From IMG/VR virus record IMGVR_UViG_2718217868_000001, positions 1-40,101 of that record: a DNA stretch of 40,101 nucleotides; one strand, written 5' to 3'. This document shows positions 6,552 to 17,396 of this stretch, in pieces. Position 1 is the stretch's first letter; the number at the start of each line of letters is the position of its first letter. The notes beneath the pieces were generated by a model, which saw nothing but the letters and a program-made list of their open reading frames with translations, searched no databases and was not told the origin of the DNA. The translations under genes were made by a program, and so were the position numbers. Source of the stretch: a virus. Its lineage: Duplodnaviria > Heunggongvirae > Uroviricota > Caudoviricetes.

Positions 6552-6713
6552 TTATTCGCATCGCATGACAACATCAAATTTTTCGAGATTACTTTGTCGC
6601 AACAATCCTTCTTCTACGCGGTCAGCTTTTCTATAATTATCAAATTCGAAATGTTTAATTACTTCTTTCGTTTCTCGCTCTATAACTTCAACAATGTATT
6701 TCTTATTCATCAT
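6552..6713 (-). CDS. Hypothetical small protein (53 aa), last gene of the AT-rich early-left cassette
   Basis: ATGA overlap with the stop of the 98-aa gene; AT-rich; below the ORF-track cut-off. Confidence 0.4.
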   Translation of the reverse strand: MMNKKYIVEVIERETKEVIKHFEFDNYRKADRVEEGLLRQSNLEKFDVVMRCE

Positions 6714-9971: not shown

Positions 9972-10779
9972 GTTAGCTGATTACAGGCCTCAACTGGAGG
10001 TCGTGGAGCATCGCGTGGCAGATACCGAAGATGGTTTCATGCGCGTTGCTAACGAGATTACCGACAGTCTGCTGATGGCTGATTTAACCGTCCGGCAGCT
10101 GAAGGTGATGCTCGCTATCATGCGCAAGACATACGGATTCAATAAGCCGATGGATCGACTCACAAACACGCAGATAGCAGCCATGACAGGTATTCATCAC
10201 ACTCATGTTTGCGCTGCCAAGCGCCAGCTTATCGAGCGTAAATTCCTCATTGCTGATGGCGTGAAAATCGGAGTGAACAAGGTGGTTTCTCAGTGGATTA
10301 GCCAGGACAGCTTAACATTAGCTAAAACAGCTAATAAAACATTAGCCAAGTCGGCTAATGGGTATAAGCCAAGTCAGCTAAACACAAAAGACAATATACA
10401 AAAGACAATAAATACAAATACCCCCTTACCCCCTAACGGGGGCGGCGATGGGCAGGTTAAACCTGAACGTCGCAAGGCAGAACGAATCGACTACGAATCC
10501 TTCCTGAACGCCTACAACACCGAAGTCGGTGACAGACTTCCACATGCTGTTGCGGTCAACGAGAAACGCAAACGCCGCCTGAAGAAAATCATCCCGCAAC
10601 TGAAAACGCCAAACGTGGACGGTTTCAGAGCGTATGTCAGGGCGTTTGTGCATCAGGCCAAGCCGTTTTACTTCGGAGACAACGACACGGGCTGGACGGC
10701 TGATTTTGATTACCTGCTGAGAGAAGACTCGTTAACGGGAGTTCGGGAAGGGAAGTTTGCAGACAGGGGGATTGCATGA
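9958..10779 (+). CDS. Replication initiator, lambda O-like N-terminal domain (P22 gene 18-type)
   Basis: [32 protein letters not shown].. parallels the lambda O N-terminal domain; internal iterons; followed by a DnaB-type helicase as in P22. Confidence 0.8.
10311..10420. promoter_or_regulatory. Putative replication origin: iteron cluster plus AT-rich tract inside the O-like gene
   Basis: Repeated AGCTAA/GCCAAGTC motifs at roughly 11-bp spacing (10311..10385) followed by an A-rich stretch (10386..10420), analogous to lambda ori inside O. Confidence 0.5.
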
Positions 10780-12152
10780 GACAGGATATCGAAGCGAGCG
10801 TTATCGGTGGCCTGCTGATTGGTGGATTAACTCCAACCGCCAGCGACGTTCTGGCAACGCTAGAGCCGGAAGCGTTTTCAATTCCGCTCTACCGGAAAGC
10901 CTTCGAGGTTATTCGCAAGCAGGCGAGAAACAGAAACCTAATCGATGCGCTGATGGTTGCCGAGGCGTGCGGAGAGGAGCATTTCACGTCAATCCTGATG
11001 ACCAGCAAAAACTGCCCGAGCGCCGCAAACCTGAAGGGATATGCCGGAATGGTCGCGGATAACTATCACCGCCGTCTGGTGCTGGAAATCATGGATGAAA
11101 TGCGTGAACCAATCCAAAGCGGAACCATCGACGCATCGAGTCAGGCGATGGATGAACTTGTAAAGCGTCTTTCAGCCATCAGAAAGCCCCGTGACGAGGT
11201 TAAACCTGTACGGTTAGGGGAAATCATCACTGACTACACTGACACGCTTGACAGGCGTCTGAGGAACGGAGAAGAGTCAGATACCCTGAAGACCGGAATC
11301 GACGAACTTGACGCCATCACCGGAGGGATGAACGCAGAAGACCTGGTGATTATCGCCGCTCGTCCTGGTATGGGTAAAACCGAACTGGCGCTGAAGATTG
11401 CCGAAGGCGTTGCAAGCCGCGTTATTCCTGGTTCTGACGTCCGGCGCGGAGTGTTGATTTTCTCGATGGAAATGAGCGCATTGCAGATTGCAGAGCGAAG
11501 TATTGCCAACGCCGGGAGGATGTCGGTTAGCGTACTGCGAAATCCTGCATCGATGGATGACGAAGGCTGGGCGCGTGTTGCTAACGGCATGAGTCAGCTT
11601 GCAGATTTGGATGTATGGGTAGTCGATGCCTCGCGGTTATCGGTCGAAGAAATACGCTCAATCGCAGAACGGCACAAACAGGAAAACCCAAACCTGTCAC
11701 TCATCATGGCGGATTATCTTGGCCTGATTGAGAAGCCGAAAGCAGACCGCAACGACCTTGCAATTGCTCACATCTCCGGAAGCCTGAAGGCGATGGCGAA
11801 GGACCTGAAAACGCCTGTTATCTCCCTGAGTCAGCTTTCGCGCGATGTTGAGAAGCGACCAAACAAACGCCCGACAAACGCAGATTTGCGTGATTCAGGA
11901 AGCATTGAACAGGACGCAGACTCAATCATCATGCTCTATCGGGAAGCGGTATATGACGAGAACAGTAGCGCCGCGCCATTTGCTGAAATCATTGTGACGA
12001 AAAACCGTTTTGGCTCGCTTGGTACGGTTTACCAGCGGTTCTGTAACGGACACTTTGTTGCATGTGACCAGGATGAAGCCAGACAGATTTGCACACCATC
12101 AAATGCACCTGCTGCGCGTGGCAGACGATATGCACAAGGGGCTGACGTATGA
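10776..12152 (+). CDS. DnaB-family replicative helicase (P22 gene 12-like)
   Basis: 458 aa with a Walker A motif ([15 protein letters not shown]) and overall DnaB-like layout. Confidence 0.85.
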
Positions 12153-12177
12153 CCATCTACATCACTGAGCTAATAAC

Positions 12178-12210
12178 AGGCCTGCTGGTAATCGCAGGCC
12201 TTTTTATTTG
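12178..12210 (+). terminator. Intrinsic terminator after the helicase gene (tR2-like position)
   Basis: Hairpin AGGCCTGC-loop-GCAGGCCT followed by TTTTTATTT. Confidence 0.7.
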
Positions 12211-12224
12211 GGGGAGAGTAAATC

Positions 12225-12431
12225 GTGGCTGAGTTTATGCTCGTCGCATTCAAATGCGTTGGCGTTGGATGGATTCTTCTGACGTTTTTTATTGTTCTGC
12301 ATAGCTACATTCGTCTTGTGAATGACGGTAAAGACCCATGGTATACGTTGTTTGGCGCTGCATTTGTCTGGGTGATTATCGGTGTTATGCCTGTTGTCGT
12401 AGCAAAAATGGCGTGGCGTTTTGTGAGTTGA
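12225..12431 (+). CDS. Small two-helix membrane protein (68 aa; GTG start, or ATG at 12237)
   Basis: GGGGAGAG site; two hydrophobic segments. Confidence 0.45.
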   Translation: MAEFMLVAFKCVGVGWILLTFFIVLHSYIRLVNDGKDPWYTLFGAAFVWVIIGVMPVVVAKMAWRFVS

Positions 12432-12448
12432 ACTGAGGGTAAGTATCG

Positions 12449-12733
12449 ATGGACGAATCAAGAAAGCAGTTTGAAGAAAGTTGGTTGCGACGTGGAGGCG
12501 AATCATCAGACCTTATCCGTTACCCTGAAAATCACCATGAAATTGGCAGTGGTGATATTGGTGGTCAATACGTGATGGACGATGTTCAAGGCCACTGGCA
12601 AACGTGGCAGGCATCGCGAGCAGCTATTGAAATTGAGTTGCCTGTATGGTTTGTCAGTGATGCTATTGCTGTGTACGACCGTGACGATATCGATGAATCC
12701 ATCCGCGCCGCTGGAATCAAAGTGAAGGAGTGA
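12449..12733 (+). CDS. Hypothetical nin-region protein (94 aa)
   Basis: ORF in the operon orientation between two small membrane-protein genes. Confidence 0.5.
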   Translation: MDESRKQFEESWLRRGGESSDLIRYPENHHEIGSGDIGGQYVMDDVQGHWQTWQASRAAIEIELPVWFVSDAIAVYDRDDIDESIRAAGIKVKE

Positions 12734-12921
12734 GAATGAGTCGACGAAGTAGCTTTTTGGGGTTTGTAATATTCCTGTCCTGCACTGGTTACATCGTAAT
12801 CTGGTCAATTTCGAACATTGACCGTGGCGTGGCATATCTCATTGTAATGTTCTTTCCTTTGTTTCTTGGGTGGTACGCCGCAAGGTTGCTGGAAGAATGG
12901 GGTTACAGGCATAAAAAATAA
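12730..12921 (+). CDS. Small two-helix membrane protein (63 aa)
   Basis: Overlaps the upstream stop; two hydrophobic segments. Confidence 0.45.
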   Translation: MRMSRRSSFLGFVIFLSCTGYIVIWSISNIDRGVAYLIVMFFPLFLGWYAARLLEEWGYRHKK

Positions 12922-12932
12922 AGGAGTGTTCA

Positions 12933-13343
12933 GTGAAGCAAACAATCTTCCTCCGAAGTAAGCAACAACAGCAAGCCGCAATCAACGCCATCCTCGCAAC
13001 ACCACTCGATAAAGACAAGCCAGTCACCATCCGCATTACTGACTACAAGCGCAACCTTGACCAGAACGCAAAATTTCACGCGATGCTGGCGGATATCGCT
13101 CGTCAGGTTCAATGGTGCGGCAAATGGTTAAAACCGGAACAATGGAAGGTTTTGTTGATTAGCGGTCATGCAGTGGCAACAAACCTGGAAGCTGATGTTT
13201 TGCCCGGGCTTGAAGGCGAATACGTCAACATTCGCGAAAGCAGCGCGCAGATGAGCGTGAAGCGCATGGCAAGTCTGATCGAGTACACAACAGCCTGGGC
13301 TATTGGTCAGGGTGTCAGATTTACCGACAGGAGGTACGAATGA
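12933..13343 (+). CDS. ninB: NinB (Orf-family recombination mediator)
   Basis: ..[27 protein letters not shown].. parallels lambda NinB (RSLDQNRKLWACLGDVSRQVEWHGRWL). Confidence 0.8.
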
Positions 13344-13516
13344 GACGACAGCGACGAAGTTTCACCGACATCATCTGCGAAAACTGCAAATACCTTCCAA
13401 CGAAACGCTCCAGAAATAAACGCAAGCCAATCCCAAAAGAATCTGACGTAAAAACCTTCAACTACACGGCTCACCTGTGGGATATCCGGTGGCTAAGACA
13501 TCGTGCGAGGAAATGA
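13340..13516 (+). CDS. Small basic nin-region protein (lambda NinD/NinE-type, 58 aa)
   Basis: [52 protein letters not shown].. matches a small lambda nin protein as I recall it; which nin letter is uncertain. Confidence 0.7.
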
Positions 13517-14940: not shown

Positions 14941-15125
14941 ACGCCACAATTCAAACGATACCAGAGCTTCTTATCCAGACACGAGGCAATCAGACTGAAG
15001 TGGCAAGGATGCTTTCCTGCGCAAGAGGAACAGTGCTCAAGTACAACCGAGACAGCAAAGGCGAGCGTCATGTAATAGTTAACGGCGTCCTGATGGTCAA
15101 ACAGGGCAAGAGGGGAAGACGATGA
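14937..15125 (+). CDS. ninH: NinH-like protein
   Basis: ..GNQTEVARMLSCARGTVLKY.. parallels lambda NinH. Confidence 0.7.
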   Translation: MNATIQTIPELLIQTRGNQTEVARMLSCARGTVLKYNRDSKGERHVIVNGVLMVKQGKRGRR

Positions 15126-15745
15126 GACTCGAAAGCGTAGCTAAATTTCATTCGCCAAAAAGCCCGATGATGAGCGACTCACCACGGGCCACGGCTTCTG
15201 ACTCTCTTTCCGGTACTGATGTGATGGCTGCTATGGGGATGGCGCAATCACAAGCCGGATTCGGAATGGCTGCATTCTGCGGTAAGCATGAACTCAGCCA
15301 GAACGACAAACAAAAGGCTATCAACTATCTGATGCAATTTGCACACAAGGTATCGGGGAAATACCGTGGTGTGGCAAAGCTTGAAGGAAATACTAAGGCA
15401 AAGGTACTGCAAGTGCTCGCAACATTCGCTTATGCGGATTATTGCCGTAGTGCCGCGACGCCGGGCGCAAGATGCAGAGATTGCCACGGTACAGGCCGTG
15501 CGGTTGATATTGCCAAAACAGAGCAGTGGGGGAGAGTTGTCGAGAAAGAGTGCGGAAGATGCAAAGGCGTCGGCTATTCCAGGATGCCAGCAAGCGCCGC
15601 ATATCGCGCTGTAACGATGCTAATCCCAAACCTTACCCAACCCACCTGGTCACGCACTGTTAAGCCGCTGTATGACGCTCTGGTGGTGCAATGCCACAAA
15701 GAAGAGTCAATCGCAGACAACATTTTGAATGCGGTCACACGTTAG
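15122..15745 (+). CDS. Q: Late-gene antiterminator Q (lambda Q-type)
   Basis: 207 aa beginning MRLESVAKFHSPKSPMMSDSPRATASD.., essentially the lambda Q sequence as I recall it, with the Zn-finger region CRDCHGTG..CGRCKG. Confidence 0.9.
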   Translation: MRLESVAKFHSPKSPMMSDSPRATASDSLSGTDVMAAMGMAQSQAGFGMAAFCGKHELSQNDKQKAINYLMQFAHKVSGKYRGVAKLEGNTKAKVLQVLATFAYADYCRSAATPGARCRDCHGTGRAVDIAKTEQWGRVVEKECGRCKGVGYSRMPASAAYRAVTMLIPNLTQPTWSRTVKPLYDALVVQCHKEESIADNILNAVTR

Positions 15746-15787
15746 CAGCATGATTGCCACGGATGGCAACATATTAACGGCATAATA

Positions 15788-15816
15788 TTGACTTTTTGAA
15801 TAAAGTTGGGTAAATT
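15788..15816 (+). promoter_or_regulatory. PR' late promoter with the qut region
   Basis: -35 TTGACT, 17-bp spacer, -10 TAAATT, matching the lambda PR' arrangement immediately downstream of Q. Confidence 0.8.
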
Positions 15817-15851
15817 TGACTCAACGATGGATAAATGCACTCGTTAAATAA

Positions 15852-16178: not shown

Positions 16179-16502
16179 ATGAAGATGCCAGAAAAACATG
16201 ACCTGTTAGCCGCCATTCTCGCGGCAAAGGAACAAGGCATCGGGGCAATCCTTGCGTTTGCAATGGCGTACCTTCGCGGCAGATATAATGGCGGTGCGTT
16301 TACAAAAACAGTAATCGACGCAACGATGTGCGCCATTATCGCCTGGTTCATTCGTGACCTTCTCGACTTCGCCGGACTAAGTAGCAATCTCGCTTATATA
16401 ACGAGCGTGTTCATCGGCTACATCGGTACTGACTCGATTGGTTCGCTTATCAAACGCTTCGCTGCTAAAAAAGCCGGAGTAGAAGATGGTGGAAATCAAT
16501 AA
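16179..16502 (+). CDS. S: Holin S (lambda S107/S105)
   Basis: [41 protein letters not shown].. is near-identical to lambda S, including the dual-start MKM. Confidence 0.95.
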
Positions 16503-16962
16503 TCAACGTAAGGCGTTCCTCGATATGCTGGCATGGTCAGAGGGAACTGATAACGGACGACAGAAAACCAGAAATCATGGTTATGACGTCATTGTTGGCG
16601 GAGAGCTATTCACTGATTACTCCGATCACCCTCGCAAACTTGTCACGCTAAACCCCAAACTCAAATCAACAGCCGCCGGACGTTACCAACTTCTTTCCCG
16701 TTGGTGGGATGCCTATCGCAAGCAGCTTGGCCTGAAAGACTTCTCTCCGAAAAGCCAGGACGCTGTGGCACTGCAGCAGATTAAGGAGCGTGGCGCTTTA
16801 CCGATGATTGATCGCGGTGATATTCGTCAGGCTATCGACCGTTGCAGCAATATCTGGGCTTCACTGCCGGGCGCTGGTTATGGTCAGTTCGAGCATAAGG
16901 CTGACAACCTGATTGCAAAATTCAAAGAAGCAGGCGGAACGGTCAGAGAGATTGAGGTATGA
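16486..16962 (+). CDS. R: Endolysin R (lambda R lytic transglycosylase)
   Basis: [39 protein letters not shown].. is near-identical to lambda R. Confidence 0.95.
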
Positions 16963-17396
16963 GCAGAGTCACCGCGATTATCTCCGCTCTGGTTATCTGC
17001 ATCATCGTCTGCCTGTCATTGGCTGTTAATCATTACCGTGATAATGCAATCGCCTACAAAGAGCAGCGCGATAAAGCCACATCCATCATCGCTGATATGC
17101 AGAAGCGGCAACATGATGTAGCAGAACTCGACGCCAGATACACAAAGGAGCTTGCTGATGCTAACGCGACTATCGAAAGTCTCCGTGCTGATGTTTCTGC
17201 TGGGCGTAAGCGCCTGCAAGTCGCCGCCACCTGTGCAAAGTCAACGACCGGAGCCAGCAGCATGGGCGATGGAGAAAGCCCAAGACTTACAGCAGATGCT
17301 GAACTCAATTATTACCGTCTCCGAAGTGGAATCGACAAGATAACCGCGCAGGTTAACTATCTGCAGGAATACATCAGGACGCAATGCCTTCGATGA
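16959..17396 (+). CDS. Rz: Spanin inner-membrane subunit Rz
   Basis: [20 protein letters not shown].. N-terminal transmembrane segment plus coiled coil, lambda Rz-like. Confidence 0.9.
17152..17343 (+). CDS. Rz1: Spanin outer-membrane lipoprotein Rz1, embedded in Rz in the +1 frame
   Basis: Signal peptide with a lipobox (LGVSAC) followed by a proline-rich segment, fully inside Rz. Confidence 0.75.

Follow-up and report, generated by a model that had tools for sequence, protein, structure and literature searches.

Two predicted membrane hairpins and a phiTE_015 family protein as putative mosaic cargo between tR2 and ninB in a P22-like Escherichia coli phage

In lambdoid phages, the nin region is known as a tightly packed, mosaic and dispensable array of genes with overlapping stop and start codons (PMC8022706; PMC5630979), and nin regions are assembled as mosaics from a pool of 30-50 genes, most of which have no known function (PMC5630979). 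The genes that lead into this region are arranged in the order P, ren, tR2, ninB in phage lambda, and in the order gene 12, ninA, terminator, ninB in phage P22. Here, we describe the start of the nin region in the IMG/VR virus record IMGVR_UViG_2718217868_000001 (40,101 nucleotides, called the window below), a P22-like (Lederbergvirus) E. coli phage or prophage, where three plus-strand open reading frames (ORFs), which we refer to as orf68, orf94 and orf61, occupy positions 12225-12921. The segment 12150-12950 matches phage vB_EcoP-611R6 (ON470589) at 99.4% identity and a prophage in E. coli strain H6 (NZ_CP010170) at 100%. We know of no membrane proteins among the functions that have been described for nin genes, i.e. 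recombination, junction resolution, phosphatase activity and similar functions. Our comparison points to two selected genes for predicted membrane hairpins, orf68 and orf61, on either side of a soluble protein, and our tentative preference, held with slightly less than even confidence, is that these are delayed-early inner-membrane hairpins that would regulate a component of the host membrane, carried as mosaic cargo at the tR2/ninB junction.

The first ORF, orf68 (12225-12431, plus strand), encodes 68 amino acids from a GTG start preceded by the Shine-Dalgarno sequence GGGGGAGAG, and corresponds to the RefSeq protein WP_000807325.1, named “hypothetical protein”. Its grand average of hydropathy (GRAVY) is +1.27, its Kyte-Doolittle profile shows two hydrophobic windows of 19 residues (maximum 2.5), and the AlphaFold2 model built with the family alignment is a helical hairpin (mean predicted local distance difference test score, pLDDT, of 88; helices 2-33 and 38-67), in agreement with the original prediction, made from the sequence of the locus, that this ORF encodes a two-helix hydrophobic protein. 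The protein matches PHROG 1165, a family in the category of unknown function, over its full length (E 1.6e-38, residues 1-68 against positions 1-68 of the 68 of the profile). Between divergent alleles, the pairwise ratio of nonsynonymous to synonymous substitution rates (dN/dS) is 0.27-0.34 in frame, versus 0.77-1.16 in the other two frames; an excess of synonymous changes occurs in the proposed frame only (Fisher p 1e-4 to 7e-4), and the ORF is intact in 66 of the 69 copies from phages and IMG/VR loci. By these substitution patterns, orf68 is a real gene under purifying selection.

The full-length members of the orf68 family always have 68 amino acids and align without insertions or deletions (n=22); the longer entries are fusions with NinA or NinX, and the shorter ones are partial or truncated calls. 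Residues W16, F21, G35, W49, I52-G53, P56-V57, A60-K61-M62-A63-W64 and F66 are invariant in the 22 sequences, while K36, D37 and R65 are conserved in at least 90% of them, with G35-K36-D37 forming the turn; with the length fixed, conservation is concentrated in helix 2 and the tail that follows it. Two alleles occur: type A is found in the window, HK620 and Salmonella phages, and type B in HK022, HK630 and Stx2 (Shiga toxin 2) phages. About 60% of codons 1-47 differ between the two types, and the 3' third is almost identical, in the DNA too; in the Salmonella allele the 3' third has diverged as well, with AKMAWRF kept. One family member, P0027, is an apparent recombinant of types A and B, which suggests a recombination breakpoint within the gene. 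We have also considered that the allele type might track the type of the preceding helicase gene, and we have rejected this, as HK620 has a P gene of the HK022 type together with a type A orf68.

Relatives of orf68 are found in 107 phage records (E. coli, Shiga toxin-converting and Salmonella phages) at 52-98% identity, and the family comprises 43 protein clusters in a large protein database. The gene is carried by about 4-10% of E. coli genomes and by numerous Stx-converting and Salmonella phages, in each case immediately after tR2, and its host range is confined to phages and prophages of Escherichia and Salmonella: a scan of the GTDB species representatives returned five loci only, all of them in Escherichia or in contigs that resemble E. 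coli phages and have been binned into metagenome-assembled genomes. Fused forms occur as well. In the Salmonella prophage proteins P0017 and P0022 (93-94 amino acids), the latter present on 47 contigs, the NinA frame continues in frame into the orf68 homologue, and the G-run region 3' of the terminator differs in these variants; a three-helix fusion protein may be made from such frames. In P0016 (115 amino acids), residues 1-51 of orf68 are fused to a C-terminus that is NinX-like (PF10765); the protein probably arose by a deletion that joined the orf68 and NinX genes in one E. coli prophage.

The third ORF, orf61 (12736-12921, plus strand), was given 63 amino acids in the original prediction, which is the length obtained from the mechanical start at GTG 12730. 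The start at ATG 12736, which yields 61 amino acids, has AAGGAG six nucleotides upstream, is the annotated start in ON470589, and is kept in a divergent homologue (locus L005); for these reasons the product is more likely to have 61 amino acids. Two hydrophobic stretches flank an NIDRG turn, and the two-helix nature that had been proposed for this protein is upheld by hydropathy together with the pattern of conservation under selection. The divergent homologue, P0004, has 74% amino-acid identity and is encoded directly 3' of a DnaB helicase gene on a metagenome contig; against it, dN/dS is 0.17 in frame versus 0.77 and 1.93 out of frame (Fisher p 2e-6). The ORF is intact in every copy, both in the 26 from phages and IMG/VR loci and in the 26 full-length ones from metagenomes, and in one variant (L130), whose 5' end is rearranged, the hydrophobic core is still in frame from a new ATG. 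On these comparisons, orf61 too is a real gene under purifying selection, and it shows no homology to orf68 (BLASTP E 3.6).

Copies of orf61 are present in four phage records, in four protein clusters among 5.8 billion (5.8e9) proteins, in 195 of 5426 complete E. coli genomes (about 3.6%, at 95-100% identity), in 19 of the 80 IMG/VR loci closest to orf94, and in 27 metagenome contigs; every copy with a named source comes from E. coli or an E. coli phage, and the metagenome copies are unassigned. The RefSeq annotation, made by the Prokaryotic Genome Annotation Pipeline (PGAP), has nothing over orf61 in every row listed among the 195 genomes, nor in both regions that were inspected; in strain H6 (NZ_CP010170.1, 1613625-1613810), the locus tags skip from RG48_RS08390 to RG48_RS08400 across the gene. 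Residues 32-33 (12829-12834), at the periplasmic turn, are the sole recurrently variable spot, with VA, a minority variant, in the window, and GE, GK, AA or WE elsewhere. A lipoprotein or spanin-like identity has been rejected, as the residues before Cys16 are F-L-S (in variants F-L-V, F-L-I or F-L-F), which do not fit the lipobox [LVI][ASTVI][GAS]C.

No family in Pfam, PHROGs or NCBIfam includes orf61, and its profile matched none of 1.84e9 representative proteins, not even members of its own family, so that this library seems to hold no representative of the family. The lack of a family in any library, the empty profile search and the missing PGAP calls in all listed RefSeq genomes would fit an ORF that arose by chance in spacer DNA, with hydrophobicity as a by-product of T-rich sequence. 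For orf61 and orf68 we find this scarcely credible: the low dN/dS values (0.17 and about 0.3, respectively) are confined to the proposed frames, 52 of 52 and 66 of 69 copies are intact, a strong Shine-Dalgarno sequence stands ahead of both, and L130 preserves the membrane core in frame despite its new start.

The way in which the three genes are placed is informative about how they came to be there. The terminator tR2 (12178-12210, plus strand), found by a terminator scan and annotated as tR2 in HK620, consists of an 8-bp GC-rich stem with an 8-nt loop and a T-run; the hairpin (12178-12201 in the scan) and the T-run are base-identical to the lambda and P22 sequence 5' of ninB, confirming that the block directly follows a tR2-like terminator, as had been noticed at the outset. 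The stretch AGGCCTGCTGGTAATCGCAGGCCTTTTTATTTGGGGGAGAG is a base-for-base match to the one upstream of ninB in lambda and P22, and GGGGGAGAG, which serves orf68 in the window, is the ribosome-binding site of ninB in these two phages. None of orf68, orf94 and orf61 is encoded in lambda or P22, according to gene maps and tblastn, so the earlier remark that the small membrane proteins lie outside the lambda nin set was correct, and the three proteins have no homology to any named lambda or P22 nin gene. Since the identical tR2 and Shine-Dalgarno sequence stand ahead of ninB in lambda and P22, the 697 base pairs appear to be cargo that has been inserted exactly at the tR2/ninB junction. The terminator, the Shine-Dalgarno sequence and the start of orf68 recur with no or only a few base differences in HK620, HK022, HK630, Stx2-converting phage 86, phiv205-1 and Salmonella phage SPN9CC.

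Upstream of the block there is an O-like initiator gene, and its left boundary is the gene for a DnaB-type replicative helicase of the P22 gene 12 type (10776-12152, plus strand; Pfam DnaB_C 1.3e-77, DnaB 4.6e-13; PHROG 19); the right boundary is ninB, which encodes the Orf recombination mediator (12933-13343, plus strand; Pfam NinB 2.2e-54), with the genes from ninB through a Q-like gene (15122-15745) following. All three genes show the positional features of nin genes, i.e. a place between tR2 and the late activator, co-orientation with pR, tight packing, and absence from some relatives. The three plus-strand ORFs lie where they had first been reported, and they are, as was then described, overlapping or closely spaced: 17 nucleotides separate orf68 from orf94, two separate orf94 from orf61 (a 4-nt overlap if GTG 12730 is used), and 11 separate orf61 from ninB.

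Between the helicase gene and orf68 there is also a NinA mini-ORF of 27 amino acids (12149-12232, plus strand), identified by its translation and annotated as ninA in HK620, SPN9CC, HK630 and P22. Its start and the stop codon of the helicase gene share an ATGA; the mini-ORF then reads through the tR2 hairpin, and ends at a TGA that overlaps codons 2-3 of orf68 (GTGGCTGA); the lambda and P22 counterpart ends in an ATGA overlap with ninB. This chain of starts and stops across tR2 looks like conserved translational coupling, and ribosomes on the mini-ORF could influence termination at tR2. The packing makes translational coupling probable both for the helicase gene, the NinA mini-ORF and orf68, and for orf94, orf61 and ninB. 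The identification of NinA with orf68 itself has been rejected, as the ORF that is annotated as ninA in P22, HK620 and SPN9CC has 26-27 amino acids and spans the terminator. Further downstream, just 3' of the Q-like gene, vB_EcoP-611R6 (ON470589, positions 6554-6679, corresponding to about 15700-15830 of the window) has a 41-amino-acid ORF labelled “polyubiquitin-A”; this label is almost certainly an automatic mis-annotation.

The middle ORF, orf94 (12449-12733, plus strand), encodes a soluble, acidic protein (GRAVY -0.70; 20 aspartates and glutamates versus 10 lysines and arginines), in keeping with the solubility first ascribed to it. It matches PHROG 343 (1.2e-27), and the identical RefSeq protein, WP_000344553.1, is named “phiTE_015 family protein”. 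Membership in the Pfam family PF26207 has been taken through relatives and not from a direct score, this family being absent from the local Pfam copy: nearly all of the 120 listed relatives, among them P0048, which is 99% identical, carry a precomputed PF26207 assignment. The family ranges over enterobacterial, Cronobacter and Pseudomonas phages, jumbo phages included. Its members are mosaic within themselves: conserved segments at the N-terminus (SRKQFE), in the centre (W..WQASRAAIEIELP) and at the C-terminus (IRAAGIKVKE) enclose inserts that vary; in the alignment, orf94 shares the family motifs SRK.FE, W..W.ASR.AIE and AG.KVK. Its AlphaFold model has a pLDDT of 65, and the fold search returned no informative matches.

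Whether the three genes belong together can be judged from their linkage in other genomes. Among the 80 IMG/VR loci, orf68 stands directly upstream of the orf94 relative in 60, orf61 is present in 19, and all three genes are found in 17; of 5426 E. coli genomes, 90 have the full block, as do two phage records. The 80 loci are the nearest relatives of the query, and such linkage is therefore expected from shared ancestry. Elsewhere, the genes are found separately: orf68 stands alone, directly before ninB, in HK620 and HK630; phage Gally has an orf94 relative and orf61 without orf68; and in SPN9CC other genes separate orf68 from the orf94-like gene. The block is thus better described as mosaic cargo than as a demonstrated module; these distributions point to three independent genes and argue against a strict module, and the picture of two membrane proteins bracketing a soluble one did not hold up as a conserved unit, given HK620, HK630, Gally and the divergent orf61 homologue that follows a helicase gene.

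The phiTE_015 homologues of other phages have been compared in the same respect. In Pseudomonas phage Deifobo (L017, 1201-1347), the homologue is immediately followed by a 48-amino-acid ORF with two hydrophobic stretches, and in Pseudomonas phage FBPa19 (L018, 1149-1337), again immediately, by a 62-amino-acid ORF with a C-terminal transmembrane helix; no hydrophobic ORF adjoins the homologue in Skate or Bas79, the latter having a 48-amino-acid hydrophobic ORF two genes further downstream. In this small sample, there are hints of a recurrent pairing of phiTE_015 homologues with small hydrophobic ORFs across unrelated phages. A functional module of three genes, in which orf94 would be a soluble partner that is anchored or regulated by the two membrane hairpins, could draw on this pairing in the two unrelated Pseudomonas phages, on the tight packing with its probable translational coupling, and on the linkage counts, i.e. 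60 and 17 of the 80 loci and the 90 E. coli genomes. We nevertheless consider it improbable, because each gene is found without the others, the 80 loci are close kin, Skate and Bas79 have no membrane ORF immediately beside the homologue, and tight packing is general in nin regions (PMC8022706).

The preferred reading, i.e. independent membrane hairpins, depends next on how the two proteins would be oriented and when they would be made. Positive charges are found at both termini, namely in MSRRSS and RLLEEWGYRHKK of orf61 and in KMAWRFVS of orf68, and the turns between the helices carry no net charge in either protein; as this distribution fits the positive-inside rule, it suggests that both hairpins have an N-in/C-in topology in the inner membrane, with a short periplasmic turn. 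A consensus scan, which may miss weak or activated promoters, found no sigma-70-like promoter site in 11800-13400, where 2.0 are expected by chance. The position 3' of tR2, together with the lack of a promoter-like site of their own, suggests transcription only from pR transcripts that have been antiterminated by N/gp24. The three genes would thus be delayed-early lytic genes, silent in the lysogen; expression in the lysogen seems unlikely from a repressed pR operon, behind tR2.

In the mechanism that we propose, the start of the nin region holds accessory mosaic cargo made up of three independent genes, and each hairpin would act as a small membrane-protein regulator that uses its conserved helix 2 and the membrane-adjacent cytoplasmic tail, AKMAWRF in orf68 and ARLLEEW..RH.K in orf61, to bind a protein or complex of the host inner membrane. 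The infected cell would be modified as a result, for example by the blocking of a DNA-entry route or of a membrane-acting abortive-infection effector; membrane permeabilisation and the timing of lysis would not be the task of either hairpin, and both genes would be dispensable. The narrow host ranges of orf68, in Escherichia and Salmonella, and of orf61, whose named sources are all E. coli or E. coli phages, are consistent with a host-specific partner.

Several points weigh against this proposal. Target, phenotype and even expression are inferences, as is every step beyond “membrane hairpin”; the topology is drawn from the positive-inside rule and not from a dedicated predictor, and the delayed-early timing from position and a crude promoter scan. 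Diversity in orf61 is very low, with nearly all copies 93-100% identical, and the signal of selection comes from one divergent pair. As the 3' third of orf68 is nearly identical across the alleles in DNA as well, its conservation is partly the product of recent recombination and not of selection alone. Finally, small hairpin proteins can also form pores.

Pore formation deserves attention for this last reason. Class II holins, such as the pinholin of phage 21, are small proteins of two helices in an N-in/C-in layout, and orf68 and orf61 resemble them in size and in inferred layout; the hydrophobic hairpin is borne out by hydropathy and AlphaFold, a proline is conserved in helix 2 of both proteins, and a glycine in helix 2 of orf68. 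Oligomers of such proteins could depolarise or permeabilise the inner membrane, as a pinholin-like auxiliary of lysis timing or as a toxin that arrests growth. We regard this as unlikely. The genes are in the early-right operon with no adjoining endolysin, while a canonical late-controlled lysis cassette with a holin (PHROG 126), an endolysin and an Rz spanin is present at 16179-17396, downstream of the Q-like antiterminator gene (15122-15745), and an early lethal pore would abort the infection. No holin or toxin family is matched in Pfam and PHROGs (both at E up to 1), NCBIfam or PADLOC, and Rfam gives no signature of an antisense RNA or antitoxin; in addition, the second methionine of orf68, M5, is not conserved in the type B alleles, so that there is no dual-start motif. 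On these grounds, the holin-like function suggested in the original prediction is unlikely. The C-terminal tails, where holins have a charged hydrophilic domain, are short, KMAWRFVS (+2) in orf68 and RLLEEWGYRHKK (+4/-2) in orf61. A type I toxin of the Hok/TisB kind is disfavoured by the presence of two helices and not one, by the lack of an Rfam family and by the lack of a promoter-like site.

The other early suggestions, a toxin or an exclusion factor, stay as candidates that found no support in PADLOC, NCBIfam or Rfam, nor in a promoter-like site for the lysogen. Small inner-membrane proteins are a classic form of exclusion factors, as in T4 Imm, P22 SieA and HK97 gp15, and orf68 and orf61 could likewise be superinfection-exclusion or defence factors that are made from the prophage and keep the DNA of competing phages from entering; among E. 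coli prophages the genes are common (195 to 539 of 5426 genomes), and the variable residues 32-33 at the periplasmic turn of orf61 could reflect an arms race. This, too, we hold to have a small chance of being right, as both genes lie 3' of tR2 in a repressed pR operon where no sigma-70-like promoter was found, PADLOC gave no matches, and orf61 has hardly diversified, in contrast to what is typical of genes in an arms race; moreover, the host-membrane regulation that we prefer already includes exclusion in the lytic cycle.

A bolder extension of that preferred reading would have orf68 and, independently, orf61 as founders of a new class of delayed-early inner-membrane proteins, each of which binds a particular membrane protein of enterobacteria and so neutralises a membrane-acting abortive-infection or exclusion system, or closes a route of DNA entry in lytic growth, with the tR2/ninB junction as a counter-defence hotspot and, as a linked possibility drawn from the pairs in the two Pseudomonas phages, phiTE_015 proteins acting with a small membrane partner in unrelated phages; we think it quite unlikely. 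The database searches gave no functional match: there is no functional family for orf68 or orf61 in Pfam, NCBIfam or PADLOC beyond sub-threshold noise (T4SS_pilin 0.022, Acyl_transf_3 0.006), PADLOC has no matches at E up to 1, PHROGs and Pfam hold no defence or exclusion family for them, the profiles of all three families find nothing below E 0.2 among PDB sequences, and Rfam has no matches at E up to 1 in 11500-13500. Our literature search found nothing on phiTE_015, PF26207, WP_000807325.1 or WP_000344553.1; the papers on ninA and the nin region do not mention these ORFs, and a search for early small membrane proteins of lambdoid phages yielded analogies only.

The result is mainly a correction of annotation, together with a pair of well-defined experimental candidates. 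Small membrane proteins are under-annotated and rarely characterised, and what is new here is that orf61 is a selected gene without RefSeq annotation in the genomes inspected, that orf68 travels as a unit with tR2, and that both encode predicted membrane hairpins, for which the nin functions described so far have no counterpart; the families were already in the databases as hypothetical proteins. Specialists in lambdoid phages expect mosaic genes of unknown function at this place, and their presence will come as no surprise. If either hairpin does modulate a function of the host membrane, the list of functions in the classic nin region would grow by one, and there would be a handle on how temperate phages treat the host envelope early in infection.

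Several known systems can be set beside the two hairpins. The nearest in position are the nin genes themselves, i.e. ren and ninA-ninI of lambda, and ninA, B, D, E, X, F, G, Y, H and Z of P22, which occupy the same place, from tR2 to the late-gene activator in the early-right operon; orf68, orf94 and orf61 differ in having no homology to any named one. Lambda Ren, which lets lambda escape Rex exclusion, is like orf68 a dispensable accessory gene at the P/tR2/ninB junction, but it is soluble, encoded upstream of tR2 and unrelated in sequence. A replacement of Ren by orf68 is weakened as an explanation, since phage H-19B carries both genes, so that orf68 is not simply a substitute for Ren.

In architecture, the class II holins and pinholins (S21-68 of phage 21) share with orf68 and orf61 a length of about 60-70 amino acids, two transmembrane helices and the inferred N-in/C-in layout; they differ in being encoded in lysis cassettes, and the short tails seen here appear to lack the strongly charged domain that is typical of holins. 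T4 Imm, HK97 gp15 and P22 SieA are, like orf68 and orf61, small inner-membrane proteins that are encoded by phages, with no sequence similarity detected to either of the two; no promoter-like site for expression in the lysogen was found for orf68 and orf61, and T4 Imm is likewise made early in lytic infection. The regulators that we have in mind have their model in PhiNM1 Gp11, a small membrane protein that blocks cell division in Staphylococcus aureus (PMC11237401), and in the small membrane proteins of bacteria (reviewed in PMC12648545): with these, orf68 and orf61 would have in common the size class, the membrane location, early expression and the proposed binding to a larger membrane protein, a likeness that is one of analogy and not of homology.

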